In this document: positions 4,578 through 54,226 of the stretch, piece by piece
Numbering within the stretch: position 1 is the stretch's first letter
How the letters are laid out: each line of letters starts with the position of its first letter
Assembly: GCA_045594645.1 (NCBI GenBank)
Contig: JAZNYY010000043.1
Coordinates: 3,562 to 67,561 of the forward strand
Direction of reading: 5' to 3'
DNA length: 64,000 nt
From: Candidatus Fimenecus sp.
GTDB lineage: Bacteria > Bacillota > Clostridia > Oscillospirales > Acutalibacteraceae
Notes under the pieces: model-generated
The model's database searches: none
Told to the model about the DNA's origin: nothing
The model's input: the letters and a program-made list of their open reading frames with translations, nothing else
Position numbers and translations under genes: made by a program

Positions 4578-4589
4578 AGGTAGTTTGAT

Positions 4590-39202: not shown

Positions 39203-40579
39203 TCAGTTCTCCCCCTTTGATTTTAAAGCATTTTTGATTTTCGCAACAACACTTGTGGCATAAAGTTCAAAATAAATTACGATATTTCGGCTCTTGTCTG
39301 CATTTTTGCTGACCGCATTTGCCAACTCGTCATAATTCTCAAATAAAATGAATTTTGATGTGTCGAGCCCCTTGATTTCAAGACACTGTGCCAAGTCATA
39401 GCAACGGGAGCCGCCAATATAGATACTCTTGATTTTTTCACTCTCAAGAGGTGCAAAATCGGTATCGTAAAGCCAAGAAATATCCTCGTGACCGTGCACC
39501 TTATCGTTGCTGTCTGTGATAAGCAAAACCACATCTTTTTCGGTTTCTGTACTGTTAAGATATTTAAGACTTTGCGAGCAGGATATGGGGTTTTGGTTCT
39601 TTGAAAGCATTGAAACTACTTGGGCACCGCCGAATTTATTCTCTTGAAAACGACCTGTTTTTGACGATAAATCCTCAATACTTGAAGCGATTATGTCAAT
39701 GTCAATGCCTAAAAGTCGGCAGATTGCAACTGCTCCCGTAATGTTGAAAACATTAAAGAAATTGCCCTTTTGGAATGGTAAAACAAGGCTTTCGCCCTTG
39801 TCACCATTGAATACAAATGTGCCGTTTTCAAAATCAACATCGGACGCGAAATAACGGCTTTCGGGCATAGAAAATCCACAATGAGAGCATTTTGGCACAC
39901 CGATATGATTATAATGGAAAAATTCATAATCAAGAATATGATTGCATTTTGGGCAAGCGATTAAATCACAAACTGTATCCTCACACTTTTCGGTGCTTCT
40001 TTCAGTTCTATTTACAGTGAAAAATACGCGGTTGCATTTTTCTTCACCCAAAAGTCCCGAAATTGCATCATTTCCGTTGAGAACAAGAGTTGTTTTATCA
40101 CTTAAATAATCATTAATTTTATCAAAAATAAACCCACTGTGACCGTTGCGCATAATGGAGTCGCGGAACAAGTTTGTGCAAAGAATATAGTCAGGTACGA
40201 ACTTTGTATAAATAAACTGTGATGAACGCTCGTCCACCTCTAAAACGGCAACATCAGCAGTAACCTTACCGCCAAGAGTACATTGAGTAACAAGCGCCGA
40301 GGCAAGACCGGGCGCCATATTTGAGCCCTTTGAGTTATTCACAACAGTTTTACCGCTGTTGCGGATAATATGAGTAAGTAAATTTGATGTACCCGTTTTA
40401 CCGTTTGTACCCGTTACGCACACTGTAGTTTCGGGCATAACAAAACGAGCCAATGCATCGGGGCAAATTTTAAGCATAATTATACCCGGTGTGTTTGTAC
40501 CGCGTTTAAATATTTTATCAAGCAAAAATGCTGAAAGCTTACCCACTATAACGGCAATTAAAAATCTGATTTTTCCCAT
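39203..40579 (-). CDS. murT: Lipid II isoglutaminyl synthase, Mur-ligase subunit MurT
   Basis: The Mur-ligase P-loop VTGTNGKTGTS, the Cys4 ribbon CPKCN..CSHCG, and a DUF1727-like C-terminus (DISWLYDTDF) are present. The ATG at 40579 lies 1 nt after the upstream stop. Confidence 0.85.
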   Translation of the reverse strand: MGKIRFLIAVIVGKLSAFLLDKIFKRGTNTPGIIMLKICPDALARFVMPETTVCVTGTNGKTGTSNLLTHIIRNSGKTVVNNSKGSNMAPGLASALVTQCTLGGKVTADVAVLEVDERSSQFIYTKFVPDYILCTNLFRDSIMRNGHSGFIFDKINDYLSDKTTLVLNGNDAISGLLGEEKCNRVFFTVNRTERSTEKCEDTVCDLIACPKCNHILDYEFFHYNHIGVPKCSHCGFSMPESRYFASDVDFENGTFVFNGDKGESLVLPFQKGNFFNVFNITGAVAICRLLGIDIDIIASSIEDLSSKTGRFQENKFGGAQVVSMLSKNQNPISCSQSLKYLNSTETEKDVVLLITDSNDKVHGHEDISWLYDTDFAPLESEKIKSIYIGGSRCYDLAQCLEIKGLDTSKFILFENYDELANAVSKNADKSRNIVIYFELYATSVVAKIKNALKSKGEN

Positions 40580-40580
40580 T

Positions 40581-41117
40581 TTATTCTTCCTTTTCTTCTT
40601 GCTTTTTAACAAGCCTTGAAAGATAATATATATTTTTCTGCGAGTTATTTATAAGCTCAGCAAAACCTTTTATTGCGAGCGATAAGGCAACTCCCAATCC
40701 CGCAATTGCTAATCCGCCGACTACACCAACAATATCCCTGCCCATAGGGAACATCATATAAACAGCAAAAGCAATACCACCTGCAACACCTGAAGCCAAC
40801 AGTATAACTGACGCTAAAAGTATCGTATTAGCAACCGGTGATGAGGGCATCTCATTATTATTTATTTCAGTTGTTTCTTCATCATCAACGGTGTTATTTT
40901 TATCTTTTAAATCTTGTTCTTCAATCTGCTGATTTTGTGCTTCAAGCTCTTTCTGTGCCTGCACCATTTCATAAATGGGATTATATTTTCTGCATGTCAC
41001 GCAGTTTTCAGTATCTTCCCAACATTCTTTATGATAGATTTCCCAGCAATGAGGGCACTCAACCAAATCGGCTTCATTTATTTTTTCATTACATTTAGCG
41101 CATATAAGATTATCCAT
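40581..41117 (-). CDS. Membrane-anchored zinc-finger protein (four CxxC/HxxC knuckles, RING/PHD-like)
   Basis: The N-terminus is CAKC-x13-CPHC-x5-HKEC-x7-CVTC. It is followed by a coiled/acidic linker, 2-3 TM helices, and a KKQEEKEE tail. Confidence 0.5.
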   Translation of the reverse strand: MDNLICAKCNEKINEADLVECPHCWEIYHKECWEDTENCVTCRKYNPIYEMVQAQKELEAQNQQIEEQDLKDKNNTVDDEETTEINNNEMPSSPVANTILLASVILLASGVAGGIAFAVYMMFPMGRDIVGVVGGLAIAGLGVALSLAIKGFAELINNSQKNIYYLSRLVKKQEEKEE

Positions 41118-41189
41118 ATTATCGCCCCTTTATATGAATAATTATAAAATTTGCAGAGTTTAAAGTCAATATGAAAATAAAAAAGAAAA

Positions 41190-41257
41190 GTCATTCTGAG
41201 AAACGAAGTGACGAAGAATCTCAAAAGCACGAAATTCTTCGCTTCGCTCAGAATGAC
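41190..41257 (-). terminator. Palindromic 'gtcattctgag...ctcagaatgac' repeat acting as hppA terminator
   Basis: This is a 68-nt imperfect hairpin. On the minus strand it is followed by a TTTTCTTTTTT run, immediately downstream of the hppA stop. Confidence 0.6.
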
Positions 41258-41272
41258 AAAACAATACTTTAA

Positions 41273-43357
41273 TTAAAGAATACTGAAATTCACAACAAGT
41301 GCCGCGAATACGATTGAAACCATTGAAAGAAGCTTGATGAGGATATTGATTGCGGGGCCCGATGTATCTTTGAACGGGTCGCCTACTGTATCGCCCACAA
41401 CCGCTGCCTTATGCTGTTCACTACCCTTACCGCCGTGAACACCTGATTCAATATATTTCTTTGCATTATCCCAAGCACCGCCTGAGTTTGACATATAAAC
41501 CGCCATTAAGAAGCCTGTAACGGTTGCGCCTGCAAGCATACCCACAACGCCCTTATAGCCAAGCACAATACCTACAACAATCGGAACTGCGATTGCAATA
41601 ACTGTTGGGAGCACCATTTCACGAAGGCTTGCCCTTGTGCAAAGGTCAACGCAAGAAGCGTAGTCGGGCTCTGCTTCACCCTCCATAAGACCTGTGATTT
41701 CTTTAAACTGACGGCGAACCTCTTTAACAACGCTCTGTGCCGCTTTGCCCACAGAATCCATTGTAAGTGCCGCAAACACAAAGGGAAGGCACGCACCCAC
41801 GAAAAGTCCGATAAGAACTACGGGATTGATAATATCAAAGCTTAAATCTGCATTGGGATTAATTGACTTAACCTTGTCAACATAAGATGCAATAAGAGCT
41901 AAAGCTGTGAGAGCCGCTGAACCGATTGCAAATCCCTTGCCCGTTGCGGCAGTTGTATTGCCGAGAGCGTCAAGAGCGTCTGTGCGTTCTCTTACCTCAG
42001 GCTCAAGCCCTGCCATTTCGGCAATACCGCCCGCGTTATCAGCAACGGGGCCGTAAGCATCTGTAGCCAAAGTAATGCCGAGAGTTGAAAGCATACCAAC
42101 CGCAGAAAGTGCAATACCGTAAAGTCCCATTGAAGCACTCTCGCCACCGCCCGATACAAAGTAAGAAACAAGAACACTGACTGCAACAATCACGATTGGC
42201 ATTGCAGTTGATTTCATACCGAGACCAAGTCCGCCAATAATGATTGTGGCTGAGCCTGTTTCAGAAGTTGAAGCCAATTTTTTTGTGGGCTTGTAGCTGT
42301 CAGATGTATAGTATTCAGTCGATTTACCGATAAGCACGCCCGCTAAAAGTCCCGAAACAATAGCAACATAAAGACCAAGATTTTCTTTTCCGAGTACAAG
42401 CCATACAACAGGCAGAGCAATAATTGCAATTGCAATTGCACTCAAATTCGTACCACGGCTGAGTGCTTTAAGAAGCTGTTTCTGGTCAATGCTTTCGCCT
42501 GTACGCACAAAGAATGTACCCACAATTGACATTACAATACCGAGCGCCGCCAAAAGCATTGGCACTGCCATTGCATTAAAGCTACCGTGGAATGCAGAAA
42601 CACCAAGGGCTGCCGCTGAAATTACCGAGCTTACATACGATTCATAAAGGTCTGCACCCATACCTGCAACATCGCCAACATTGTCGCCAACATTATCGGC
42701 AATAACGGCGGGGTTACGGGGGTCATCCTCGGGAATTCCTGCCTCAACCTTACCAACAAGGTCCGCACCTACATCTGCCGCCTTGGTGAAGATACCGCCA
42801 CCTACACGAGCAAAAAGCGCCATTGAAGACGCACCCATACCGAATGTGAGCATTGTGCTTGTGATTGTTGCGGGGTCATTAATACCGAAAACAAATCTTA
42901 AAAGCAAGAACCAGATTGAAATATCAAGAAGTCCGAGTCCTACAACGGTAAAGCCCATAACGGAGCCTGCAGAGAATGCCACACGCAAGCCTCTGTTCAA
43001 GCCCTCGCGACAAGCGTTTGCTGTTCTCGCATTTGAGAACGTTGCAATTTTCATACCTACAAAGCCTGAAAGTCCTGAAAAAAATCCGCCCGTGATAAAG
43101 GCAAAGGGCACATACCAAGTGAGAAGCCCCGCCAATGCCATACCGCAGAGAATTAGGAACATTCCGCCAAATAATATTGAAACCACCGTATACTGACGCT
43201 TTAAATACGCATTTGCACCTTTACGGATTGACTGCGAGATTTTTTGCATTTTTTCTGTACCCTCTGAAAATTTTAGCACCTTTTTTGCAGTGAACAACGC
43301 AAATAAAAGTGCCAATACCGAGCCTACGAATGTGAGCAAAACAAGATATTTTTCCAC
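41273..43357 (-). CDS. hppA: Membrane-bound cation-translocating pyrophosphatase (K+-dependent type)
   Basis: 694 aa with about 16 TM helices. The motifs GGGIFTKAADVGADLVGK, DNVGDNVGD and GNTTAATGKGFAIGSA are present; Ala rather than Lys in GNTTAA marks the K+-dependent clade. Confidence 0.95.
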   Translation of the reverse strand: MEKYLVLLTFVGSVLALLFALFTAKKVLKFSEGTEKMQKISQSIRKGANAYLKRQYTVVSILFGGMFLILCGMALAGLLTWYVPFAFITGGFFSGLSGFVGMKIATFSNARTANACREGLNRGLRVAFSAGSVMGFTVVGLGLLDISIWFLLLRFVFGINDPATITSTMLTFGMGASSMALFARVGGGIFTKAADVGADLVGKVEAGIPEDDPRNPAVIADNVGDNVGDVAGMGADLYESYVSSVISAAALGVSAFHGSFNAMAVPMLLAALGIVMSIVGTFFVRTGESIDQKQLLKALSRGTNLSAIAIAIIALPVVWLVLGKENLGLYVAIVSGLLAGVLIGKSTEYYTSDSYKPTKKLASTSETGSATIIIGGLGLGMKSTAMPIVIVAVSVLVSYFVSGGGESASMGLYGIALSAVGMLSTLGITLATDAYGPVADNAGGIAEMAGLEPEVRERTDALDALGNTTAATGKGFAIGSAALTALALIASYVDKVKSINPNADLSFDIINPVVLIGLFVGACLPFVFAALTMDSVGKAAQSVVKEVRRQFKEITGLMEGEAEPDYASCVDLCTRASLREMVLPTVIAIAVPIVVGIVLGYKGVVGMLAGATVTGFLMAVYMSNSGGAWDNAKKYIESGVHGGKGSEQHKAAVVGDTVGDPFKDTSGPAINILIKLLSMVSIVFAALVVNFSIL

Positions 43358-43553
43358 ACTACTATCTCCTTTAATTAAAATGTATAGGTATAATTATATA
43401 CTTTGCCGAAAGATTGTCAACCATTTAACAATTATTTTACGCAAGTTTGTGAAATTTAAACAAATAAAAATTGCACTACTCCCCTAATAATGTGTCAAAT
43501 TTTAGCGAAAAATGAAGTTTTGTCATGTGTTTCCTGCATTTTATATAAAAACA

Positions 43554-43590
43554 GTTAGTGTGCCTCATTTGTTTAAAGAGGCACACTAAC
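43554..43590 (-). terminator. Intrinsic terminator after the repeat-protein gene
   Basis: A 13-bp stem pairs gttagtgtgcctc with gaggcacactaac. On the minus strand it is followed by TGTTTTTA. Confidence 0.7.
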
Positions 43591-43613
43591 TATACATCGC
43601 AAATAGTAACACC

Positions 43614-44003
43614 CTATTTTGTTTTCTGTAACTTCTTCTTTCTATAATATTCTTTATAGTATTGCTTTCGTTTTTCGTGAATATCAGGGTTTTCTTCATA
43701 ATATCTTTTCTGATATTCTGCCAGTTTTTCTTTGTTTTCAGCTTGATATACCTTTTGATACTCTGCAAGCTCCGCTTTGTGCTCACTGCGGTATTTTTTC
43801 TGATATTCTCTCACCTTTTGAGGTGCTTCGCTATTTTCTGCAAGGTATTTTTTACCTCTCTTTGCGTATTCCTCTTTATGCTCGGCATAATACTTTTGCT
43901 TGTACTTTTTCACTTGCTCACGATGCTCTGAATACCATTTTCTTTGATACTCCCGCCGTTTTTCTTTAAGCTGCAATTCGGTTCCTGCAATTTTCTGTGG
44001 CAC
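43614..44003 (-). CDS. Highly basic tandem-repeat protein (about seven ~15-aa Y-x3-Y-x-E-[HN]-K-E repeats)
   Basis: A GTG start at 44003 lies 8 nt after the RBS GGTGGAG. The ORF-track N-terminal extension (44004-44105) covers the promoter and operators. Repeats include YQRKWYSEHREQ, YKQKYYAEHKEE, YQKKYRSEHKAE, YQKVYQAENKEK and YQKRYYEENPD. Confidence 0.6.
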   Translation of the reverse strand: MPQKIAGTELQLKEKRREYQRKWYSEHREQVKKYKQKYYAEHKEEYAKRGKKYLAENSEAPQKVREYQKKYRSEHKAELAEYQKVYQAENKEKLAEYQKRYYEENPDIHEKRKQYYKEYYRKKKLQKTK

Positions 44004-44037
44004 AATTACCACTCCACCTATAGATACATACAAATTG

Positions 44038-44114
44038 GTAAACAAATTGTTTACTTTGATAATTATAGTAAACAGATTGTTTATTGTCAAGTAGAAAGTA
44101 AACATTTTGTTGTA
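44038..44114. promoter_or_regulatory. Three 17-bp operator repeats with exact 30-bp phasing
   Basis: O1 at 44038-44054 is gtaaacaaattgtttac, a perfect palindrome. O2 at 44068-44084 is gtaaacagattgtttat. O3 at 44098-44114 is gtaaacattttgttgta. Confidence 0.75.
44062..44090 (-). promoter_or_regulatory. Consensus sigma-A promoter for the repeat-protein gene (TTGACA-17-TATAAT)
   Basis: On the minus strand the -35 is at 44090-44085 and the -10 at 44067-44062. The 17-nt spacer is exactly operator O2, and O1 covers the expected +1 region. Confidence 0.7.
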
Positions 44115-44139
44115 TGATTGAAACAGAGGAGGGAGCGTT

Positions 44140-44355
44140 ATGGATTACACAAAAAGACTTTATGATTTAAGAACTGACAACGATTACCGGCAAGAAGACA
44201 TTGCCGAATATCTGCAGATAACCAAGCAAGCATATGGAATGTATGAAAACGGCAAAAGAAATCTTTCAATTGATTATCTTATAAAACTGAGCAAATTTTA
44301 CGGTGTTTCTACTGATTTCATCTTGTGCCTCACTGACAATCCTGAAATAAAATAA
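44140..44355 (+). CDS. Small XRE-family (Cro/CI-type) HTH repressor
   Basis: 71 aa reading LRTDNDYRQEDIAEYLQITKQAYGMYENGKR, with no peptidase or dimerisation extension. The RBS GAGGAGGGAG lies upstream. Confidence 0.85.
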   Translation: MDYTKRLYDLRTDNDYRQEDIAEYLQITKQAYGMYENGKRNLSIDYLIKLSKFYGVSTDFILCLTDNPEIK

Positions 44356-44394
44356 AAAACTGACCTGTGAACACACGCAGGTCAGTTCTCTTTT
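44354..44394. terminator. Bidirectional terminator (XRE / holin convergent)
   Basis: aaaaaa-ctgacctg-N10-caggtcag-ttctctttt. Confidence 0.75.
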
Positions 44395-44402
44395 ATATTG
44401 TA

Positions 44403-44648
44403 TTATTCACTTTTTTTAATCTGCTTAACCACCTGATTACCGTAAACCGCCGTACCTGTTACAAGTACACCCTGCACAACACTTTCAGGTGAAAATCCCA
44501 TAATGGCAACAGCCCCAATTATTCCAAAGCCTAAAAGTATAAGCGGAATATATTTATGGGGAATCTTCTCGGTATTTTTAATTATCATACCAATCACATT
44601 AAGCACGGGAATAAGCAAAAGTGCATTTTCTGTTATATATTCAAGCAT
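44403..44648 (-). CDS. Phage holin (2-TM, Hol118/phage_holin_5-like)
   Basis: 81 aa from MLEYITENALLLIPVLNVIGMIIKNTEKIPHKYIPLILLGFGIIGAV.. to a charged C-terminus KQIKKSE. The RBS is GGAGGAA. Confidence 0.75.
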   Translation of the reverse strand: MLEYITENALLLIPVLNVIGMIIKNTEKIPHKYIPLILLGFGIIGAVAIMGFSPESVVQGVLVTGTAVYGNQVVKQIKKSE

Positions 44649-44662
44649 TTTGTTCCTCCAAA

Positions 44663-44920
44663 TTATGACACGAGAGAACTCACAAGCACACCGCAAAGAG
44701 CCGCTATAAGTGCCACAACAGCCTTATCCCAAAGCCAGCCCGGACGCTTTTTCAAAGTCTCAATGCTCTCTTTGAGTTCCCCCAAGGTAACAAGCATACT
44801 GTCAAGCTTGGTAGTGCTTGTAACCTGTTCAAGTGTCACATCATTCACTTTTTTATAAAGAATTTTCACATCGGCTTCAATGGCATCAACGCGATGATTA
44901 AGAATTTCGTTTTCAGTCAT
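44663..44920 (-). CDS. xhlA: XhlA-family phage lysis accessory protein
   Basis: 85 aa with an N-terminal coiled coil (HRVDAIEADVKILYKKVNDV), RPGWLWDK, and a single C-terminal TM helix, matching the PBSX XhlA architecture. It overlaps the lysin stop by 8 nt. Confidence 0.75.
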   Translation of the reverse strand: MTENEILNHRVDAIEADVKILYKKVNDVTLEQVTSTTKLDSMLVTLGELKESIETLKKRPGWLWDKAVVALIAALCGVLVSSLVS

Positions 44921-45794
44921 TAACTACACCCTTTTTAATATCATCACGATGAACAAACCCCGTTACATATTTGCCGATGGGCTTGCGCTCAACATTTTTG
45001 AGAGAATTTGTAACTCTGTATCTTGCCTCAAAATAAATTCCGTCATAAATATAATAAGTACCGCTGATATAGTTTGAGACCTTGTCGGTATAAGCACTTG
45101 AATAAAGTCTTGCATTTTTAAGCACGACCTTCTGCCCTGCCGCAAAGCCTCTCTTGGGCGGTGTTGCCTCAATCTCAGCACCATAGCCGTTAAGACCGTT
45201 ATATTTCATAATTGCAGGGTAATTTTTGTATGACTCATCAAGGTCAACGCGACCTTCAATGCCGTCCACATTACCCTTTGAGGATTTCTGCCATATTCCG
45301 TAAGGCTTTTGGAATGTTGGTTTATCGCTCCACTGAGCAAGCCAGATATCGTATTTTTCAAAAATCTCGTCGGTGAAATAATTTTCAAGCCAATGCTTGT
45401 TAGCATAAATGCACACGTAGTAGCCATAAGACTCCATTTTTTCACAAAATGCCTTTGCTATTGCCGAAATCTTCTCCTTACCCAGCTCAGCAATTTTGCT
45501 ATATTCCATATCATAAGCAATTGGGTATTCAAACTTTTTACCCTTAAGCTTTGAGTGACAATGCTCTGCCTCTGCAACAGCCTCTTCGGGTGTTAAAGCA
45601 TATGCAAAATGATAGGCACCAACGGCGATACCCACCTTGCGAGCCGCAGGATAATTCGTTCTGAAATACAAATCAAACCCCTTTGTACCATAAGTTGCAC
45701 GAAGCATTGCAAACTGAATTCCCGCATTGCGTACAAGCGACCAGTTAATATCGCCCTGCCAGCGAGATACATCTATTCCTTTATATACAGCCAT
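44913..45794 (-). CDS. GH25 muramidase endolysin with C-terminal SH3b-like wall-binding domain
   Basis: It starts MAVYKGIDVSRWQGDINW, has the D-x-E region IAYDMEYS, and carries a C-terminal SH3b-like segment (GQKVVLKNARLYSSAY..YYIYDG). There is no signal peptide. Confidence 0.9.
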   Translation of the reverse strand: MAVYKGIDVSRWQGDINWSLVRNAGIQFAMLRATYGTKGFDLYFRTNYPAARKVGIAVGAYHFAYALTPEEAVAEAEHCHSKLKGKKFEYPIAYDMEYSKIAELGKEKISAIAKAFCEKMESYGYYVCIYANKHWLENYFTDEIFEKYDIWLAQWSDKPTFQKPYGIWQKSSKGNVDGIEGRVDLDESYKNYPAIMKYNGLNGYGAEIEATPPKRGFAAGQKVVLKNARLYSSAYTDKVSNYISGTYYIYDGIYFEARYRVTNSLKNVERKPIGKYVTGFVHRDDIKKGVVND

Positions 45795-45816
45795 AATATC
45801 AACTCCTTTATTTTTA

Positions 45817-47517
45817 TCAATTCTGTCCATACAATGCAGTGACAATTGTATCCTTGATAACAGTCATTCCGGCTTTATTTGGGTGCGAGCCACTTTGCTC
45901 AACATCATTAGCTTCTAAATAACGAATTGGAATATACAGCAACCCATAATGTTCACAAATGGTTGATATCATATTTTTTATATTGTTGTAACAATTATAT
46001 GCCGACACGCAAACAATTTGAGCATGTGGGTTATATGTCAATAAATAATCAATAAGATAACAATATGCCGGCGCAAACGATTGCAAATCTTCTTCTGTCC
46101 ACTCAGAATATTTAGGCTCACCAATATCAACTGAGGCATTATAATCATTGACTCCGCCGAATATAAAAATCAAATCGGGCTTTATTCCAACGGCATTACC
46201 TTCTCCAAGATGTACTTTTGCACGATTTACAAACGATGTCGCGTCACCCCTCGGTGCATTTGGGCTATTGCAAACACAAGAGCCACTATAGCTCTCATTG
46301 CAAAGCAGTGAAAGTTGCTTTTCTTTGGAAAATTGCCACCACCATGTATCTTTTACGGACTCTACATCATTTGATTTACTTTGAGTTTCACTGTTCCCAT
46401 ACCAAGTCGCATTGTTTTCAGGCAACCAGCCCTCATAAGTTGAAAATGAGTCACCGATTACGGCAAAAGAAGAAATAACCTTTCTGCTTTTTATCTCGGA
46501 TATATTCTCTTTTATCTCGGTGATTTCTTTGTCTTGCAAGTCTGCACGGGGAGTTCTGACTGTGAATTCTCCACCGTAAGAGTTACCCCAATCAAAACCT
46601 GTGAATGTCGCTTCCATTCCCGCACCGGAATTGGCGATTATCTGTCTTAAATATCTCGCTTTTACAACTGCGTTGTCATACTTACATTGCATAACACGAT
46701 TTGTTGTGTCCGTAGTATAGAAAACCAAGCCTACTGTATTGCTCAATTCTCTATTAATTGGAATAGGCTCACCACAATTAAGTGTGCCGTCTTTCAAATA
46801 TGTTATTGTTGGAAATACACCCTCTGCAACTGCTGTATCAAGAGAAATTATCGCATAATAGAATGTGTCATCCTCGATTTGAAATTTTGGTGTAAATGTT
46901 CCAATATAGGTTGGCTCATCAAAAAACAATGCTGTTTTCGCATAAGCCAAGTCATACCGATATTCTTCATTAGACTTATTCTCAAACATAAAAGTTGCAT
47001 CGTAAAACTCGGCAGGCATCTCACCCTTTTCTCCTTGTATTCCTTGCTCTCCTTTATCTCCCTTGTCACCTTTATCCCCCTTGAATGTGCCAAGTCGGAT
47101 TGCTTCAAGCAAGGCATTGATTGAAAAATCATTGACTTTACAAAGTGTATTGTCAGTGTCGGGTGAGTAATCAAAAGTAAGACAAAACTTTCGGGGTTTG
47201 ATTATCTGAATAGTGTTGCCGTCTGCATCAATTGCTACAATATTAAAATAACATTCAGTTCCTTTAAGAGAACTCATTGAAACAGGAATTGCGTATGTGA
47301 TAGTATTATCTGCCGTATTCAGTTCAAGATATTCTGTTCGCACCTTATTGCCCATAAGTGAACGGTATTCAATATAATAACGATAATCGCCCAGATAAGC
47401 CTCGTCAATTTTAAATTTCAACACTGTTGCGTTGTGTTCCCACATTACCCCCGCGTTTTCAACATATTCCGTATTGTTATCGGGGGTTATATCAATAGAA
47501 ATAATTTTATTCTCCAT
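45817..47517 (-). CDS. Phage tail-fibre/baseplate-like protein: N-terminal beta domain + collagen triplets + C-terminal SGNH/GDSL esterase
   Basis: GDKGDKGDKGEQGIQGEKGE supplies the Gly-X-Y repeats. SGNH blocks are present: I AVIGDSFSTYEGW, III FIFGGVNDYN, V GSHPNKAGM. The N-terminus has no hydrophobic leader. The BppU-like assignment of the N-terminal domain is tentative. Confidence 0.7.
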   Translation of the reverse strand: MENKIISIDITPDNNTEYVENAGVMWEHNATVLKFKIDEAYLGDYRYYIEYRSLMGNKVRTEYLELNTADNTITYAIPVSMSSLKGTECYFNIVAIDADGNTIQIIKPRKFCLTFDYSPDTDNTLCKVNDFSINALLEAIRLGTFKGDKGDKGDKGEQGIQGEKGEMPAEFYDATFMFENKSNEEYRYDLAYAKTALFFDEPTYIGTFTPKFQIEDDTFYYAIISLDTAVAEGVFPTITYLKDGTLNCGEPIPINRELSNTVGLVFYTTDTTNRVMQCKYDNAVVKARYLRQIIANSGAGMEATFTGFDWGNSYGGEFTVRTPRADLQDKEITEIKENISEIKSRKVISSFAVIGDSFSTYEGWLPENNATWYGNSETQSKSNDVESVKDTWWWQFSKEKQLSLLCNESYSGSCVCNSPNAPRGDATSFVNRAKVHLGEGNAVGIKPDLIFIFGGVNDYNASVDIGEPKYSEWTEEDLQSFAPAYCYLIDYLLTYNPHAQIVCVSAYNCYNNIKNMISTICEHYGLLYIPIRYLEANDVEQSGSHPNKAGMTVIKDTIVTALYGQN

Positions 47518-47761
47518 ACTTTTCTCCTTTATAATAGGTTTTTAAAAGCGATGCGGTTTGTTTAAGCTCCCGTTTGATTTCGTAGAACTTACGAAGCTCC
47601 CCTTCAAGCTTGATAACCGCATCTGTGTCCCCCGAGTTTTTAGCCTTTTTGATTGAATTTTTGCAGTTGTTGATAAACAAATCCTGCAATTCAGCGTGAG
47701 ACTCATATTCTTTTCCCAAATCAAAAAGAGACATATTTTTAGTTTTTGAATTTTCTGACAT
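47507..47761 (-). CDS. Hypothetical small helical protein (phage-island)
   Basis: 84 aa, predicted all-helical and charged. It overlaps both neighbouring genes, which suggests coupling. No family was recognised. Confidence 0.45.
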   Translation of the reverse strand: MSENSKTKNMSLFDLGKEYESHAELQDLFINNCKNSIKKAKNSGDTDAVIKLEGELRKFYEIKRELKQTASLLKTYYKGEKYGE

Positions 47762-48128
47762 ATTCCAGTAATTCCTCCGTTGATTGTGGAAGCAAAATTT
47801 TATCGTACATCAAAACATATTTCAGTGCCATTTCGAGTTTCTTGCGAATATTTTCAAGATTTCTGTAAATGCTTATGTGCGACACATCATATTTTTTTGC
47901 CAGCTCCCTTAACGGAACTTCATTGTACCAATGTGCCGTTGCAAGATTGCGTTCATATTCCGTGAGTTCATTCTGCATCACACTTTTGACGATTTCAATC
48001 AGTTTTTTCTGTCTGTTGTAAATAAGATATTTTGTTCCGTCTTTGACTTGCCCGCCCGACAAGTCAACATAGTCAGTAAGAAAATCAAATTCCTCAACTG
48101 AAAATTCAGATACCTGAACATTCTGCAT
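47739..48128 (-). CDS. Sigma-70 region-4-like / ArpU-Xpf-type phage late-gene transcription factor
   Basis: 129 aa. LTEYERNLATAHWYNEVPLRELAKKYDVSHISIYRNLENIRKKL resembles a sigma region 4.2 HTH. Confidence 0.6.
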   Translation of the reverse strand: MQNVQVSEFSVEEFDFLTDYVDLSGGQVKDGTKYLIYNRQKKLIEIVKSVMQNELTEYERNLATAHWYNEVPLRELAKKYDVSHISIYRNLENIRKKLEMALKYVLMYDKILLPQSTEELLEYVRKFKN

Positions 48129-48172
48129 AGTATAAATCCGCCCCTTTCAAAAATCTTGTTCATCAAAAAAAT

Positions 48173-48200
48173 AAAACGCAGATGAAAAATCGTGCGTTTT
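48173..48200 (-). promoter_or_regulatory. Leader hairpin + U-tract (possible attenuator) between promoter and sigma-like gene
   Basis: The minus strand reads aaaacgca-cgatttttcatc-tgcgtttt followed by ATTTTTTTG. Confidence 0.45.
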
Positions 48201-48212
48201 CAAATTATTTAT

Positions 48213-48226
48213 CGAACATTTGTTCG
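48213..48226. promoter_or_regulatory. LexA operator (Cheo box) CGAAC-N4-GTTCG
   Basis: The sequence cgaacatttgttcg has perfect arms. It lies 13 nt downstream of the -10 hexamer. Confidence 0.7.
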
Positions 48227-48239
48227 CCTCGCATTTATT

Positions 48240-48268
48240 ATTGTAGCAACATATTTTAATGTTGTCAA
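48240..48268 (-). promoter_or_regulatory. Consensus-like sigma-A promoter of the island operon (TTGACA-17-TACAAT)
   Basis: On the minus strand the -35 is at 48268-48263 and the -10 at 48245-48240. Confidence 0.7.
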
Positions 48269-48342
48269 GAAAAAAGTAAAATTATCTATATACTAAAAGA
48301 AAAAATAATTACTGATAAGATTGTAAAATCGCAGTCAGTATA

Positions 48343-48373
48343 TAAAAAAACGGAAGCCCTTTCGGACTTCCGT
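48343..48373 (-). terminator. Intrinsic terminator after the surface-protein gene
   Basis: The minus strand reads acggaagtcc-gaaag-ggcttccgt followed by TTTTTTT. Confidence 0.7.
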
Positions 48374-48405
48374 CAAAATATCAATTATGAAATTATGTAA
48401 AAGAA

Positions 48406-49206
48406 TTATTCAGCGTCTTCGCTCTTTTTTCTTGTCATAACAAGTGCTGCACCTGCTGCAAGAGCTACTGCTGCAACTGCAAATACTGTTGTATCGCCTG
48501 TGTCGGGAATTGTTGAACCTTCACCGTCAGTGCCCCATGGGTCTTCTTCGTCCCAAAGGTTATCTTCCTCTCCGGGGTCTGTGGGGTCACTTGGAGTAGG
48601 GTCATCACTTGGGAAAAGGCTACCGATAATACCGCCAAGGATACCGAGAATTGTATCAAGCAATCCGCCGATATCAAAGCCACCGCCTGCATTACCCTCG
48701 TCTTCTTCGGGAAGCTGACCGTCTTCAATGCTGCCGTCGGGCTTACCAACATAACCGTCAGAGTTAAGGTCTGTTGAAAGAAGCTCTTCAACGCCCCAAA
48801 CAATCTGGTTAACAACATCGCCGCCAACTGTCTTTGCAGCCTCTGGGAATGCTGATGTAAATGTATCCATATCAATTTCATTGTTTGTTACATTACCTGC
48901 AATTTCAGGCACAACAGTAATAACTGCTGTGGGGTTTGTTGCAGCTTCACCGAGAATAACTACATAATATGCAGTCCAACCCTCAACATCTGTGGGGTCA
49001 GCAGGCTTTGAACCATCGGGCTCACTGCTTTCGTCTTCATTAACATCGTCGCCCTCAACAACATCACCTTCGGTAATATCGCCACCAGCTAAAGTATCAT
49101 CAATTACTGTATCGCCACTTCCAACTGTTTCGTCTGCTGCGAAGCCGACAACTGTCATGCTGAGAATCATTGCAAGAGAAAGAACAACTGCAAGAATCTT
49201 TTTCAT
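48406..49206 (-). CDS. Acidic secreted protein with LPXTG-like (IPDTG) cell-wall sorting signal
   Basis: The signal peptide is MKKILAVVLSLAMILSMTVVGFA. The protein is D/E/G-rich. Its C-terminus is IPDTGD, a hydrophobic helix, then RKKSEDAE. Confidence 0.65.
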   Translation of the reverse strand: MKKILAVVLSLAMILSMTVVGFAADETVGSGDTVIDDTLAGGDITEGDVVEGDDVNEDESSEPDGSKPADPTDVEGWTAYYVVILGEAATNPTAVITVVPEIAGNVTNNEIDMDTFTSAFPEAAKTVGGDVVNQIVWGVEELLSTDLNSDGYVGKPDGSIEDGQLPEEDEGNAGGGFDIGGLLDTILGILGGIIGSLFPSDDPTPSDPTDPGEEDNLWDEEDPWGTDGEGSTIPDTGDTTVFAVAAVALAAGAALVMTRKKSEDAE

Positions 49207-49353
49207 AATAATCATTTCCTTTCGTTATAAGTAGAAAAAATTAGAATATTCCACTTCTATTCTCGCCCATTATACAACAATAGCCAAAAAAAGTCAACTG
49301 CGTTTTAAAATTTTTTTGTGTATATTGCAGATAATATACATGGAGGTGAATTT

Positions 49354-49542
49354 ATGTTTTTTAAAAAGAGAAATTCCGAAGAAAAAGCCGCCCGCACAAG
49401 ACGAAAGCTACGCAAAATGAACGAAGAAATCAGCGAAATCTGGAACGGTGAAGAAAACGCAAAGCAATTTGATGCAAACGGTTGGTACACGGGCAATCCA
49501 AAGGGGTTTGAAGTGCCCGAGCAAGACCCTGATGACCTATAA
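49354..49542 (+). CDS. Hypothetical small protein
   Basis: 62 aa starting at the ATG after the RBS GGAGGTG. It is charged and has no recognised family. Confidence 0.35.
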   Translation: MFFKKRNSEEKAARTRRKLRKMNEEISEIWNGEENAKQFDANGWYTGNPKGFEVPEQDPDDL

Positions 49543-49606
49543 AGTGCAAAATTATAAACAAAAGACGCTTTTTTATATATTATTGTATATAATTTTAAGA
49601 AAATAC

Positions 49607-49635
49607 TTGATTTTATATTAATTGTATGCTATTAT
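49607..49635 (+). promoter_or_regulatory. Putative sigma-A promoter of the rimP-nusA-infB operon (TTGATT-17-TATTAT)
   Basis: The -35 is at 49607-49612 and the -10 at 49630-49635. It lies about 110 nt upstream of rimP. Confidence 0.5.
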
Positions 49636-49743
49636 TCTTTATGGTAAGAATATTCGTTTTGTCAAGAGAGTGGGGCGACCCGCTCTCTTGAGTTTATAAG
49701 GACATTTTTATTATTACAATTTAATATTTTACAGGAGGTTTTT

Positions 49744-50223
49744 ATGAAGAAAAACACCGCCGCAGTTGTGTGGGATATCGCAAAGCCCATTGCAGACGAA
49801 TTAGGTCTTATTCTTTGGGATGTTAAGTTCTTAAAAGAGGGCACACGCTGGTATCTTCGCATTACTATTGACAAAGAAGATGGCGTCGGCATTGACGATT
49901 GTGTAGCAATGCACCACGCTATTGACAAGCCCTTGGACGAAGCGGACCCCATTGAGCAGGCATACAACCTGCAGGTTCAGTCACCGGGTATCGAAAGAGA
50001 ATTATGCCGTGATTTTCATTATGAGGCATATCTCGGCGAAAAAATTCAAATCAGACTTATCAAAGCATTCGAGGGTCAGCGTGAATACAAGGGTATTCTC
50101 ACAGACTACGACAAAGAAGGCGTAACTATCGCTCTGAATGATGAAACAGAGCTTAATGTTAAATATAAAGAAGCGTCTTGGATAAAGGCGGACGATTTTG
50201 GAGGTTTTACGGAAAATGAATAA
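49744..50223 (+). CDS. rimP: Ribosome maturation factor RimP
   Basis: 159 aa. Its position directly upstream of nusA and the core LRITIDKEDGVGIDDC / QVQSPGIEREL match RimP. Confidence 0.9.
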   Translation: MKKNTAAVVWDIAKPIADELGLILWDVKFLKEGTRWYLRITIDKEDGVGIDDCVAMHHAIDKPLDEADPIEQAYNLQVQSPGIERELCRDFHYEAYLGEKIQIRLIKAFEGQREYKGILTDYDKEGVTIALNDETELNVKYKEASWIKADDFGGFTENE

Positions 50224-51265
50224 AGAATTTTTTGAAGCAGTTGCGCTGATGGAAAAAGAAAAAGGTATTCAAGCTGAATATCTTTATGACAAAATCAGCG
50301 AAGCAATTATTAAGGCAGTAAGAAAAGACTATAATAATAAGGATGTTGTTGCCTGCGAAATCAACGCAGAAAAACAGACAATGCGTGTTTATCTTCACCT
50401 TAATATTGTTGATGAGATTACAGACTGGGATGAGGACATTCTTCTCATCGACGCACAGGAATACCGCCCCGACGCAAAGGTTGGCGAAACACTTGAAATC
50501 GACCTTGACACAATGAAGTTTGGCAGAATTGCCGCACAGACAGCAAAGCATGTTATCCGTCAGGGCATTAAAGATGCAGAGCGTGGTCAGGTAATTCGCG
50601 ACTTCCAGTCAAAGACACAGGACTTAGTTACTGCAAAGGTTAGCAGAATTGACCCCATCAATGGTAATGTTACTCTTGAAATCGGCAAGGGCACTGCAGT
50701 TCTTCCCAAAGGTGAGCAGGTTCCCGGCGAAACATTCACAGAGGGCGAGCTTACAAAGGTTTACATCAGCGATGTTAAAGAAACCGAAAAAGGCCCCCGC
50801 ATTATGATTTCAAGAACTCATTCAGGTCTTGTTAAGAGACTTTTCGAGCAGGAAGTTCCCGAAATTTATGACGGTATTGTTTCAATTCATTCAGTATCCC
50901 GCGAGGCAGGTATCCGCACAAAGATGGCTGTAAGCTCAAAGGATGCAGATGTTGACCCAATCGGTGCTTGTATCGGTCAGCGCGGTGCTCGTGTTAACAA
51001 CATTGTTGAGACTCTCGGCGGTGAAAAAATTGACATTGTTAAATACAGCGAAGACCCCGCAGAGTTCATTGCCGCATCACTCGCTCCCGCAAATGTATTA
51101 GAAGTTGAAATTATAGATGCAGACGCAAAGTCTTGTCAGGTTACAGTTCCCGACCATCAGCTTTCTCTTGCAATCGGCAACAAGGGCTTAAACGCAAAGC
51201 TTGCCGCAAAGCTTACAGGCTGGAAAATCGACATCAAGCCCGAAAGTGGCTTCTATGAGGGCTAA
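50216..51265 (+). CDS. nusA: Transcription termination/antitermination factor NusA
   Basis: The N-terminus is MNKEFFEAVALMEKEKGI. An S1 domain and two KH domains (ACIGQRGARV, LAIGNKGLNAKLA) are present. Confidence 0.95.
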   Translation: MNKEFFEAVALMEKEKGIQAEYLYDKISEAIIKAVRKDYNNKDVVACEINAEKQTMRVYLHLNIVDEITDWDEDILLIDAQEYRPDAKVGETLEIDLDTMKFGRIAAQTAKHVIRQGIKDAERGQVIRDFQSKTQDLVTAKVSRIDPINGNVTLEIGKGTAVLPKGEQVPGETFTEGELTKVYISDVKETEKGPRIMISRTHSGLVKRLFEQEVPEIYDGIVSIHSVSREAGIRTKMAVSSKDADVDPIGACIGQRGARVNNIVETLGGEKIDIVKYSEDPAEFIAASLAPANVLEVEIIDADAKSCQVTVPDHQLSLAIGNKGLNAKLAAKLTGWKIDIKPESGFYEG

Positions 51266-51292
51266 TTCAAAAATACTTAGAGGTGAAAAGGT

Positions 51293-51556
51293 TTGAAACA
51301 GAAGAAAATTCCTATGCGACGCTGTTGCGGTTGCAACGAACAAAAGCCGAAAAAAGAGCTGATAAGAGTTGTCCGCAGTGCTGAGGGCGAAATAAGCCTT
51401 GACCTTACAGGAAAAGCTTCGGGCAGGGGCGCATATATCTGTAACAGCCTTGAGTGTCTCAAAAAAGCCAGAAAATCCAAGAGAATCGACCGCACCTTTG
51501 AAGTAACGATTCCCGACGGGATTTACGACAAAATGGAGGAAGAAATCAGTAAATGA
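51293..51556 (+). CDS. ylxR: YlxR/RnpM family (DUF448) RNA-binding protein
   Basis: The motifs RRCCGCNEQKPKKELIRVV and GRGAYIC are present. A TTG start follows the RBS GAGGTGA; an alternative ATG is at 51314. Confidence 0.85.
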   Translation: MKQKKIPMRRCCGCNEQKPKKELIRVVRSAEGEISLDLTGKASGRGAYICNSLECLKKARKSKRIDRTFEVTIPDGIYDKMEEEISK

Positions 51557-51870
51557 TGACAGATAATTTAAAAGGCATTTTAGGTCTTTGTCGTAGGGCA
51601 GGTAAAATGTCAATCGGCCACGACGCCGTAGTTTCTTCCATAAAAAAACGCAAAGCATTTTTAAGTATCACCTGTTGTGACTCGTCAAAGAGGCTCAAAA
51701 AAGAAATCGCAGACGAATGTGAATTTGATAATCGCAAAATTCCTTATGTTAACGCAGATTTCAATATGAAGGAATTATCTCTCTGCATAGGCACAAAGGC
51801 AGGCGTTATTTCAATAGATGACCGCGGATTTGCAAATAAGCTTATTACGATTTTAAGTCAAGAGAACTGA
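51553..51870 (+). CDS. ylxQ: L7Ae-family RNA-binding protein YlxQ
   Basis: 105 aa with [17 protein letters not shown]. The gene occupies the conserved position between ylxR and infB. Confidence 0.8.
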
Positions 51871-51886
51871 AACGGAGGTTATGAAT

Positions 51887-54226
51887 ATGGCGAAAAAATA
51901 TAAAATTCACGAGCTGGCAAAGGATTTTAACATTTCCAGCAAAATCATTATAGAAAAACTTACAGGCAAGTTTGAGGGCGAAAAGAAATCACAAACTACA
52001 CTTGAAGACCGTGAGCTTGATTTCATTTTTGATGTAATCACAAGCGAGAATTCTGTTAAGAGCTTTGATGACTATTTCAATGCAGCTCCCAAAGAAAAGC
52101 CCAAGGCAGAGCCTAAAAAAGAGGCAAAGAAAGAGCAAAAAGGTGCTGACAACAAGAAACAGCAGAACACTCCTGCTCCACAGAAAAATGATAATCAACC
52201 CAAAAAGAAAGAGAAAGACCAGAACAAGCCCATGCAGGCTCGTACAAAGGGCGAAATGCGTCACATTGACACAAGAGCAAACTCTTTCGATGCTGAAAAA
52301 TACAATGAAAAATATGAAAACATTGCTCCTGCAAACTCACACCAGAGCGATAATATGGTTAAGAAGCAGAAGCTTAAGCAGAAGAGCCAGCAGTATCGCA
52401 AGCAGGGTATGAGAAGCGGTAAGAAAGAGACAGAGGCAGAACGCTTAAAGAGAATTGCCGCCGAAAGAGCAAAGAAGCCCCCTGTAATCACAGTTGGTGA
52501 CGAAATCACAGTCGGTGAACTCGCATCTCGTCTTAAGATGACAGCGGCTGAGGTTATCAAAAAGCTTTTCGCACTTGGTATGATGGCAACTGTTAACGAG
52601 GTTATCGACTACGATACCGCTGAAATCGTTGCAACAGAACTCGGTGCAAAGGTTAACCGCGAGGTAGTTGTTACTATTGAAGAAAGAATTATCGACGACC
52701 ACGAGGATGACGAGGCAGACCTTATCACTCGCGACCCCGTTGTAGTTGTTATGGGTCATGTTGACCACGGTAAGACTTCACTTCTTGACGCAATCAAGAA
52801 TACAAATGTTACTGCAACAGAGGCAGGCGGTATTACTCAGCACATCGGTGCTTACAGAGTAAACCTTAACGGTCAGTACATCACATTCCTTGACACACCC
52901 GGTCACGCGGCATTCACTTCAATGCGTGCTCGCGGTGCTCAGGCTACTGATGTTGCAATTCTTGTTGTTGCCGCTGACGACGGTATTATGCCACAGACTA
53001 TTGAGGCTATTAACCACGCAAAAGCCGCCGAGGTTGACATTATTGTTGCAATCAACAAAATGGATAAGCCCGGCACAACAGTTGATAAAATTATGCAGCA
53101 GCTCACAGAGCACGGTCTTGTTCCTGAAGAATGGGGCGGTGACATTATCTGTGTTCCTGTTTCTGCAAAGACACATATGAATATTGACAAGCTTCTTGAA
53201 AATGTACTTCTCACCGCTGAAATGCGTGAGCTTAAGGCTAACCCCAACCGTGCGGCAAAGGGTATCGTTATTGAAGCTCGTCTTGACAAGGGCAAGGGTC
53301 CCGTTGCAACTCTTCTTGTTCAAAACGGTACACTCCACGCAGGCGACATCGTTGTTGCAGGTACTGCAGTTGGTAGAGTTCGTGTTATGCTTGACGACAA
53401 GGGCCGCAAGCTTAAGGAGGCAGGTCCTTCAGTTCCCGTTGAGATTATGGGTCTTGACGAAGTTCCGCAGTCAGGCGATGTGTTCAACGCAGTTTCTGAC
53501 GAAAAGCTTGCTCGTGAGCTTGTTGAACAGAGAAAGCAAGAGCAGAAGGAAGAACAGTTCAAGCAGTTCCAGAAGGTTACTCTTGACAACCTGTTCTCAT
53601 CAATCAACGCAGGTAAGATTAAAACACTCAACATCATCGTTAAGGCTGATGTTCAGGGCTCAGTTGAAGCAGTTAAGCAGAACCTTGAGAAGCTTTCAAA
53701 CGAAGAGGTTGCAGTTAAGGTTATTCACGGCGGTGTTGGTGCAGTTAGCGAATCAGATATTATGCTTGCAAACGCATCAAACGCAATTATTGTAGGCTTC
53801 AATGTTCGTCCCGACCCAGTTGCTACTGAAATGGCAGAGCGTGACGGCGTTGATATGAGAATGTACCGCATTATCTATGACTGTATCGAAGAAATTGAAG
53901 ATGCTATGAAGGGTATGCTCGCACCTAAATTCCGTGAGGTTATGCTCGGTCGTATTGAAGTTCGTAATGTATTCAAGCTTTCTTCTGCAGGCACAATTGC
54001 TGGTAGCTATGTGCAGAACGGTAAGGTTACAAGAAATGCACAAATCCGCGTTGTTCGTGACGGTATTGTTATTGCTGAGGATTCAATTTCATCACTTAAG
54101 AGATTTAAGGATGATGTCAAAGAAGTTGCTTCAGGCTATGAATGTGGTATTGGTCTTAATAAATTCAACGATGTTAAAGAGGGCGATATTTTTGAAGCCT
54201 TCATTATGGAGGAATACAGAGACTAA
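51887..54226 (+). CDS. infB: Translation initiation factor IF-2
   Basis: The G-domain motifs [19 protein letters not shown] and NKMD are present, with a basic low-complexity N-terminus. ATG 51887 is better spaced from the GGAGG than 51881. Confidence 0.95.

Follow-up and report, generated by a model that had tools for sequence, protein, structure and literature searches.

A Six-Gene Operon of Phage Type

We analysed a 64,000-nucleotide stretch of DNA from Candidatus Fimenecus sp. (assembly GCA_045594645.1, contig JAZNYY010000043.1, positions 3,562 to 67,561; hereafter the window) and focused on a block of phage-type genes between hppA and rimP. An earlier description made from the letters alone, which we call the sequence-only reading, had listed eight open reading frames (ORFs) there and proposed a lysis and release module triggered by DNA damage. 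A six-frame reading of 40-52 kb found all eight. Six of them, intact and on the minus strand, run from 47739-48128 down to 44403-44696 and make up the module studied here; the overlaps and short gaps between them bear out the compact operon that had been described, and a consensus scan recovered the bidirectional terminator at its end (Table 1). In GC content, the block is not distinct from the rest of the window.

Table 1. Features of the module and its surroundings in the window, with median ratios of nonsynonymous to synonymous substitution rates (dN/dS) among Fimenecus loci (HTH, helix-turn-helix)
Feature	Position	Strand	Description	Median dN/dS
Operon promoter	48240-48268	-	sigma-70 type, TTGACA-17-(TG)C-TACAAT; 11 of 12 matches in a consensus scan	
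LexA (Cheo) box	48213-48226	-	CGAACAAATGTTCG; perfect match, 13 nt downstream of the -10	
Leader hairpin and T-run	48165-48200	-	resembles an intrinsic terminator; follows the LexA box and precedes the sig129 ribosome-binding site	
sig129	47739-48128	-	129-aa HTH protein of sigma region 4/YlxM (UPF0122) type; operon gene 1	0.27
p84	47507-47761	-	small helical protein; overlaps sig129 by 23 nt	0.19
p566	45817-47517	-	566-aa fibre; overlaps p84 by 11 nt	
p566 anchor, residues 1-146	47080-47517	-	predicted baseplate-anchor domain of BppU type	0.13
p566 variable part, residues 147-566	45817-47079	-	collagen triplets, unassigned middle part, SGNH/GDSL esterase	
GH25 muramidase (endolysin) ORF	44913-45845	-	probable ATG at 45794	0.095
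XhlA-like protein	44663-44920	-	overlaps lysin by 8 nt	0.087
Hol44-family holin ORF	44403-44696	-	probable ATG at 44648, giving 81 aa	0.13
Bidirectional terminator	44358-44387	both	closes the operon and the convergent XRE gene; 12-bp stem, 6 GC pairs, flanking A/T runs	
XRE71 repressor gene	44140-44355	+	HTH_3, 1e-15	
Three XRE operators	44038, 44068, 44098 (span 44038-44114)		30-bp phasing	
p163	43614-44105 (ORF), probably 43614 to ~44003	-	Lys/Glu-rich repeat protein, divergent from XRE71	
Terminator of Lys/Glu-rich gene	43554-43592		end of the XRE unit (43554-44355)	
rimP, nusA, infB			chromosomal neighbours	0.035-0.096

Family and structure searches of the ORFs, proposed as a check in the sequence-only reading, returned matches to GH25, a holin, a GDSL esterase and the HTH_3 domain of an XRE repressor. 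The lysin matches Glyco_hydro_25 in Pfam (5e-37) and phrog_291 (4.5e-50), so the GH25 part of its earlier description holds; the SH3b part was not confirmed, residues 200-310 being without a Pfam or PDB sequence match and the last 100 aa having no assignment. The holin matches Phage_holin_5_2 in Pfam (9e-20) and phrog_1129 (3e-26), and it is called as 81 aa in two close relatives of the window (L032 and L033). The XhlA-like protein, whose gene is kept in all loci, combines an N-terminal coiled coil with a C-terminal membrane helix; it has no Pfam match, and its assignment comes via phrog_937 alone ("hemolysin," 5.5e-6). With a holin, an XhlA-like protein and an intact GH25 muramidase, the lysis kit is predicted to be complete.

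The product of the first gene, sig129, had been described as a sigma-region-4/ArpU/Xpf-like factor and compared with sigma factors of the TcdR/UviA kind. Its matches to the NCBIfam models for sigma70-ECF (2.6e-6) and YlxM (1e-4) are both below the curated cut-offs, the best PDB match of its profile is 1s7o (UPF0122, 2.4e-4), and one homologue matches the Xpf model PRK06930 weakly (E 0.006), again below the cut-off. In its AlphaFold2 (AF2) model only residues 40-106 are confident, and these superpose on region 4 of sigma-E with a root-mean-square deviation of 1.1 A over 64-67 aa. Neither Pfam nor NCBIfam finds a sigma region 2, and only ~40 poorly modelled residues precede the HTH. As there is no room for region 2, we class sig129 as an HTH regulator of region-4 type, not as a sigma factor; the region-4 likeness was seen correctly, and the parallel to TcdR and UviA as sigma factors falls away. 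Its family comprises 218 clusters, mostly of ~139 aa (range 128-208) and annotated as sigma-70 family or YlxM. For the small protein p84, we found no relative in Pfam, PHROG or PDB; its family of 273 clusters, all 72-93 aa, is entirely unannotated.

The third gene encodes p566, with GXY triplets at residues 147-167 and a match to Lipase_GDSL_lke (Pfam, 1e-38) at residues 350-558, as expected from the collagen triplets and C-terminal SGNH esterase reported before. Its N terminus, MENKIISIDITPDNN, shows no hydrophobic leader when read from the sequence, which agrees with the reported lack of a signal peptide. We modelled residues 1-146 with AF2 (predicted local distance difference test score 82) and searched the model with Foldseek. 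The best PDB matches were baseplate chains of NF5 (2e-8), 80alpha (3e-7) and TP901-1 BppU (4e-7), and among viral protein models in BFVD the best were BppU-domain proteins (3e-9), with 148 matches at E up to 1e-3 that include tailspikes, baseplate components and lactococcal neck-passage proteins. Against the Pfam BppU sequence model, the domain did not reach E 0.1. From the structural matches to the three baseplates and the viral BppU-domain models, the N terminus of p566 is predicted to be an anchor of the kind that seats accessory fibres on siphophage particles.

Conservation and Selection Across Fimenecus

For the comparative set, we scanned one genome per species, 185,579 species in all, for p566 and obtained 27 loci, in records mostly titled Candidatus Fimenecus or uncultured Clostridia and from animal and human guts. 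The order sig129, p84, fibre, lysin, XhlA, holin is identical in all 27. The module adjoins p74-rimP-nusA-infB wherever the contig reaches upstream with a recognisable flank, and hppA, a RING-finger protein or murT lies on the downstream side where that side is not rearranged; the other downstream neighbours are all housekeeping genes (ABC transporter, Wzy, EF-G paralogue, Mur ligase, SulP, ribosomal proteins). In each of the 25 complete cases, the space from p84 to the lysin is taken up by one uninterrupted ORF (245-861 aa), with no extra ORF of at least 30 aa that could be an immunity-type gene. Identity of sig129 between loci is 35-47%, and p84 is present in all Fimenecus loci.

We computed dN/dS for pairs of loci with the Nei-Gojobori method (NG86), using pairs with dS <1.5 and taking medians (Table 1); with dS near saturation (~1) the values are rough, and none is near neutrality. 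At the protein level, distances in the module and in rimP plus nusA are correlated (Mantel r 0.62, p 0.0002, 13 loci), which indicates that the module diverged together with its chromosomal neighbourhood. The comparison of the hppA-to-rimP interval that the sequence-only reading had called for thus returned a six-gene module kept without particle genes in 27 species, with dN/dS below 1. The module is retained intact at one chromosomal spot in at least 27 Fimenecus species, so the bacteria would appear to use it themselves.

A Conserved Promoter With a LexA Box and a Leader Hairpin

Both the near-consensus promoter and the perfect LexA box that had been placed ahead of the operon were confirmed. 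The box is the sole match within the 64-kb window, a count that is not above chance (~1.3 expected); what lends it significance is that all 26 related loci keep it at one constant distance from the promoter. We aligned all 26 Fimenecus loci that include the upstream region and found both promoter hexamers and the TGC invariant throughout, with a drifting spacer sequence between them. The LexA box is unchanged in 23 loci and deviates at a single position in the other three; its spacing is fixed and its flanks are variable. Such a conserved footprint supports SOS control far better than a lone box, and the arrangement has what characterises the LexA regulon of Firmicutes, a CGAAC-N4-GTTCG motif just downstream of a promoter that is kept in orthologous promoters. 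The 13-nt stretch that separates the -10 from the box (48227-48239, consensus AATAATTGCAAGG) comes close to the box in its degree of conservation. This exceeds the need of a transcription start and may reflect a second binding site.

The earlier regulatory map had overlooked a conserved hairpin in the leader, which we found in the locus alignment. Counting as terminator-like those hairpins whose stem has 7 bp or more and is followed by five or more T within eight nucleotides, we found them in 24 of the 28 loci; shuffled leaders gave an average of 0.54 such loci (maximum 3). They represent 20 distinct sequences with several Watson-Crick pair types at most stem positions, and the one in the window is flanked by an A-run and a T-run. 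An Rfam search gave no family match. The hairpin could act as an attenuator and pose a second threshold after the cleavage of LexA.

A Constant Anchor and Exchangeable Tips

The sequence-only reading had taken the esterase for the cargo of the module. Across the 27 species, the conserved part is instead the BppU-type anchor, with 82% mean column identity and an invariant ENAGVMWEHNAT, and the C termini fall into at least 7 unrelated classes: different GDSL esterases, an NAGPA phosphodiester glycosidase, unrecognised domains, or mere tails of ~100 aa; in one further contig the gene is absent altogether. The esterase of the window resembles PDB 4nrd/4m8k and has no counterpart among the 27 species. 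One locus (L025) shares its backbone with three others (L002, L006 and L008; lysin 84-86%, sig129 69-72%) and its fibre tip with a different one (L007; 62% over 530 aa), to which its lysin is 62% and its sig129 37% identical. This mismatch of backbone and tip indicates that tips are exchanged by recombination.

We searched 1.84 billion cluster representatives exhaustively with a hidden Markov model (HMM) of the anchor and found 66 close relatives (E up to 1e-30), 97-859 aa long and all starting at residue 1. The distant tail of the search consisted of collagen and tail-fibre proteins. Two distant relatives (P0106 and P0112; L037 and L038) are encoded directly after tape-measure-, Dit- and Tal-sized genes in tail modules, and they show the origin of the fibre gene.

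Absence of Particle and Mobility Genes Near the Module

The sequence-only reading had noted that the block lacks integrase, terminase, portal, capsid and tail genes, and we found none among the window ORFs examined. These were all of at least 40 aa at 40000-52000 and ten large ones elsewhere, which gave housekeeping families or no family, the remaining ORFs being judged by size and layout alone. The large ORFs encode an Mrp antiporter, transporters, RF-1, an amylase and ValRS. We considered a 929-aa ORF (34606-37395, minus strand) as a tape measure and rejected it, as its translation reads as a membrane protein. This ORF has no Pfam match at 1e-5; its N-terminal half is acidic and of low complexity, and its C-terminal half is membrane-embedded and resembles a degenerate P-type ATPase.

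Among ~40 loci, including the 27 species and those of other lineages described below (L028, L029, L036 and L034), no particle genes lie within 10 kb. We also looked for tail genes beside the module where its downstream side differs (L004, L007 and L017) and found housekeeping genes only. The window contains no integrase ORF, tRNA or att-like flanking repeats. With none of these, and with a distribution that is not patchy (27 of 27 at one site), the locus does not look like an integrated prophage or satellite.

Profile scans of IMG/VR for the anchor, sig129 and p84 found none, although short exact peptide patterns miss distant relatives. A scan of metagenomes for the arrangement of -10 and LexA box returned 11 modules and no tail operon, which is a weak test; its other hits were two chance matches and one unrelated phage replication operon. 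The latter (L040; Ga0326511_10001983, 1896-8595, minus strand) lies behind TACAAT-N12/13-CGAACAAATGTTCG and contains genes for ERF, SSB, a PD-(D/E)XK nuclease, DnaB, primase and Pol III alpha. It may belong to a phage of related hosts with early genes under direct LexA control.

Related Modules in Other Lineages

The sole hit in a phage collection was MT835647.1 (L028, 1-23196), deposited as "UNVERIFIED: Bacteriophage sp." We rejected its identity as a phage, as it is a fragment of a bacterial chromosome with the module beside wall-polysaccharide genes. The module consists of a regulator, a fibre (442 aa), GH25, an XhlA-like protein and a holin, and is followed by genes for an acyltransferase, an AMP-ligase, AraC, LytR-CpsA-Psr, UDP-galactopyranose mutase and glycosyltransferases (GT2). 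A five-gene version without p84, which is absent from this second lineage, is found on a 71-kb contig (L036) and in three more loci (L029-L031) between nrdR/transglutaminase and Rrf2/ispE. Upstream of the L036 type lie TTGACA-17-TAATAT, a LexA box with one mismatch (CGAACAAATGTTCT) and a long hairpin of unrelated sequence; leader hairpins are present in L028, L029 and L036 alike, with a stem unrelated to that of Fimenecus. In a third and more distant version (L034 and L035), a promoter, a degenerate box of LexA type and a hairpin resembling a terminator precede the genes for an HTH protein, a 75-aa product, an 816-aa fibre and a holin. From its occurrence in two further lineages at other sites, the design of the module is older than Fimenecus, and it recurs at different chromosomal positions without nearby particle genes.

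Two loci of the second lineage (L029, 3376-4703, and L030, 97-1424) have the fibre called as two ORFs, of 230 aa and of 193 or 207 aa. In L028 and L036 it is one ORF of 442-445 aa, and the split in the other two is either a frameshift or genuine. The 230-aa product represents 41 member sequences.

A Proposed Domesticated Lysis Module and Its Rivals

The explanation that we consider best, with belief and doubt about evenly balanced, is that the operon is a domesticated and vertically inherited remnant of a siphophage late region, in which SOS-gated lysis would free a surface-targeting fibre. LexA would occupy the box just downstream of the near-consensus promoter. On DNA damage LexA would be cleaved and transcription would begin, most transcripts ending at the leader hairpin and T-run. 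The operon would be read through only with strong or lasting induction or with an unknown antiterminator, possibly sig129 acting in a feedback loop, and this leader gate would confine firing to a fraction of the cells. There the holin, the XhlA-like protein and the GH25 muramidase would burst the cell and free the fibre, a trimer without signal peptide, whose exchangeable distal domains (esterases, the phosphodiester glycosidase and others) would attack glycopolymers in the walls of cells nearby. The sequences themselves show the gene content and its intactness, the synteny, purifying selection, the conserved promoter, LexA box and hairpin, the anchor fold and the mosaic make-up of the fibre; we infer from them that the operon is induced, attenuated and lytic, that the fibre is released, and what it targets. 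We also hold it possible, if doubtful, that the locus is a particle-free, SOS-gated suicide operon with the leader terminator as a second gate, its fibre working without a baseplate, either as a free wall-stripping or receptor-destroying trimer aimed at nearby cells or as a dominant-negative anchor that would ruin the baseplates of invading phages as lysis cuts the infection short.

Several observations weigh against the release of a fibre by domesticated lysis genes. The part of the fibre that is conserved is a baseplate anchor, with no obvious use in a free protein, and esterase or glycosidase tips are not obviously lethal to target cells. In the short fibres without an enzyme, the anchor has a dN/dS of 0.05-0.10. 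One contig (L052; RHMF01049199.1, 240-2209) retains promoter, LexA box, sig129, p84, lysin, XhlA and holin but cleanly lacks the fibre gene, the lysin following p84 after 8 nt. As the anchor is kept without an enzyme tip and L052 lacks the fibre, cargo release cannot be the whole story. The roughness of the dN/dS values counts on the same side, as does the fact that the organisms carrying these loci are known solely as metagenome-assembled genomes.

The main doubt concerns the anchor, whose known role is to bind a baseplate, and it favours three rivals. In the first, the particle is split: the locus would hold the fibre, lysis and regulator genes of a domesticated tailocin or of a particle like a gene transfer agent (GTA), and the tube, tape-measure and hub genes would lie elsewhere; sig129 would then activate these remote structural genes, and a Dit ring would receive the fibre by its anchor. 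The anchor is the best-conserved part of the fibre and stays under selection even without an enzyme domain, receptor-binding proteins on particles classically combine a constant anchor with an exchanged tip, and the fold matches Dit-binding proteins of the TP901-1 and 80alpha baseplates. A regulator without an evident target in an operon with a single promoter also suggests targets elsewhere, and in the Rhodobacter agent RcGTA, the main cluster does not include the genes for fibre, lysis and regulator. On the other hand, tail genes were absent from the ORFs examined in the window and from the 10 kb around the loci of the 27 species and of two further lineages, the weak metagenome test returned no tail operon, and the conservation of the anchor resembles that of XhlA and the holin and is not exceptional within the operon. 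The tail-like bacteriocin loci that we know of are all contiguous. On balance, we regard a split particle as unlikely.

The anchor has also a place in anti-phage suicide, where infection would lead through RecA to LexA cleavage and early lysis that ends the infection, and the anchor would compete for positions on the baseplate of the invader, whose progeny would be non-infectious. SOS gating, a full lysis cassette, host-level conservation without mobility genes and anchor-only short fibres that are under selection, as a dominant-negative decoy would be, all suit this idea; it leaves the elaborate recombining enzymatic tips without a role, and a search of 2.9 million viral contigs, made with two peptide patterns that detect close relatives only, did not turn up the anchor's close family. 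The idea is entirely speculative, and it seems improbable to us. We give a similarly slim chance to the fibre being an accessory lysis enzyme, analogous to LysB of mycobacteriophages, that passes the holin lesion and strips species-specific decorations (O-acetyl groups, phosphodiester-linked glycopolymers) from the wall for GH25, with autolysis as the purpose (extracellular DNA, vesicles, public goods). Here the position of the fibre gene directly before the lysin makes sense, as do tips that are esterases or a phosphodiester glycosidase and vary in type between species like wall polymers, the wall-polysaccharide genes adjoining the second lineage, and the natural variant L052, which works without the fibre or has lost it. 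A BppU anchor and a collagen stalk are, however, virion features without a known role in lysis, some species keep the anchor only, and several tips have no recognisable enzyme. Finally, phage-type genes without integrase and particle genes, one contig without the fibre gene and one lineage with a split one could be seen in an ordinary prophage remnant that is decaying, functionless and preserved in this genome by chance. The sequence-only reading had argued against random decay, and synteny, purifying selection, tracked divergence and the conserved promoter and LexA box uphold this. We rejected the decaying remnant as highly improbable: the genes are intact at one site in 27 species with dN/dS far below 1 in all of them, the regulatory DNA is conserved to the base and the hairpin stems are compensated, divergence parallels that of the housekeeping neighbours, and the 35-47% identity of sig129 between loci excludes a recent transfer of one element.

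Comparison With Known Systems

Holin/endolysin cassettes are known to release leaderless cargo (PMC9527704, PMC10847048, PMC12485765). Such systems include TcdR-TcdE-TcdL of C. difficile with TcdA/B, the Tc toxin of Yersinia entomophaga, and chitinases of Serratia and Salmonella (PMC9527704, PMC10847048, PMC12485765, PMC10109510). Like these type 10 secretion loci, the module combines a phage holin and a peptidoglycan hydrolase with a large signal-peptide-less protein and a transcription factor of its own, and release, which is thought to be subpopulational there, is proposed to be so here. It differs in that its cargo is a homologue of baseplate fibres with an exchangeable tip and not a toxin, in its complete lysis cassette, in its direct LexA box and leader terminator, and in having an HTH protein with region 4 only instead of a TcdR-type sigma factor.

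Listeria monocins are F-type tail-like bacteriocins related to TP901-1 (PMC6872733). They share with the module the siphophage origin, the lack of capsid and integrase, a holin and lysin at the end, and proteins of BppU type, and they are induced by stress. Monocin loci carry tail-tube, tape-measure, Dit and Tal genes in one cluster. The module has no tail genes within 10 kb in ~40 loci, and thus none of the tail-tube, tape-measure and hub genes that mark tailocins, PBSX and GTAs; what it does have in common with tailocins is a fibre with conserved anchor and variable tip followed by a lysis cassette. The virion-bound fibres with a BppU_N anchor, trimeric stalk and carbohydrate-active or carbohydrate-binding tip, such as BppU of TP901-1, lactococcal neck-passage proteins and Bacillus tailspikes, are similar in build, and the Foldseek and BFVD matches place the p566 anchor in the same fold. 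For such fibres, the gene is part of the tail module of a complete phage, next to Dit and Tal (L037 and L038 are examples), whereas no particle neighbours the fibre gene here.

In C. perfringens, uviA is under LexA control. UviA is a TcdR-family sigma factor of the bacteriocin BCN5 (PMC10467148). The operons of colicins, S-pyocins and BCN5 resemble the module in their order of LexA-gated promoter, released protein and lysis, and in suicidal release as proposed here, and their released proteins too have a conserved N-terminal and a polymorphic C-terminal part. The analogy drawn by the sequence-only reading therefore holds for the layout and ends at immunity, as none of the 25 complete loci contains an immunity gene; in addition, the tips are carbohydrate esterases and glycosidases and not nucleases or pore formers, and the lysis cassette is a full phage one. 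PBSX of Bacillus subtilis has Xre, Xpf and XhlA-XhlB-XlyA, makes particles and has kept all its head and tail genes. Both are defective phage elements, SOS-responsive in PBSX and predicted to be so here, with a small sigma-like factor first and an XhlA-type protein in the lysis cassette; the repressor of PBSX is Xre, where the module has LexA directly and a nonconserved XRE, and its lysin is an amidase, where that of the module is a GH25 muramidase. The comparison with PBSX made earlier is one of analogous parts and not of a homologous element.

Domestication of defective prophages is already well known (PMC8987985). We found no description of this module in the literature, nor of Fimenecus biology beyond abundance surveys. 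As a minimal phage fragment fixed in a whole gut genus, the module makes the purpose of a domesticated lysis cassette directly testable, and it poses the puzzle of a baseplate anchor under strong selection with no baseplate encoded nearby. A split tail-like particle in Clostridia, if true, would be the first outside the alphaproteobacterial GTAs; otherwise, the BppU anchor would have found a second life. If DNA-damaging drugs or diet trigger lysis and the release of wall enzymes in an abundant uncultured gut genus, this would affect the community, the release of DNA and phage-host interactions. By pairing a LexA box with a compensated leader terminator, a lethal operon would gain two gates in a simple way; this design may have a wider distribution. 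Such loci are easily mislabelled as phage, as with MT835647.1.

The XRE Unit and Other Neighbours

The XRE repressor with three operators that had been described beside the operon is real (Table 1). The sequence-only reading had counted it among the parts of the module, and we rejected it as a controller of the operon: operators are present solely at the XRE's own divergent promoter and not near the operon promoter, and the unit is missing beside the module in all 27 species loci, one of which (L012) has a homologue elsewhere, near rimP. An identical XRE at the equivalent place occurs only in the two close relatives L032 and L033. The unit is a neighbour particular to this lineage and does not serve as the module's switch. 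Its divergent gene p163 has a perfect 12/12 promoter (44090..44062) inside the ORF, and the equivalent in L032 is called as 129 aa; judged from these two facts, p163 probably starts internally and has a product of ~129 aa. The Lys/Glu-rich protein contains EYQKKY-like repeats, has phrog_36724 as its sole family match (1.4e-5), and is paired with XRE71 in L032 and L033.

Directly upstream of the module, the minus strand encodes an acidic LPXTG-anchored surface protein (48406-49215), a hypervariable neighbour with 26-34% identity between species that is missing in several. Beyond it, the small ORF p74 (49318-49542, plus strand) lies beside rimP in nearly all loci and bounds the module on its constant, upstream side; this ORF is fast-evolving, with 46-70% identity and a median dN/dS of 0.33. 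On the other side, between murT and hppA, lies the gene for a Prok-RING_1 zinc-finger protein with a C-terminal membrane segment (40581-41117, minus strand), which is kept in several Fimenecus loci.

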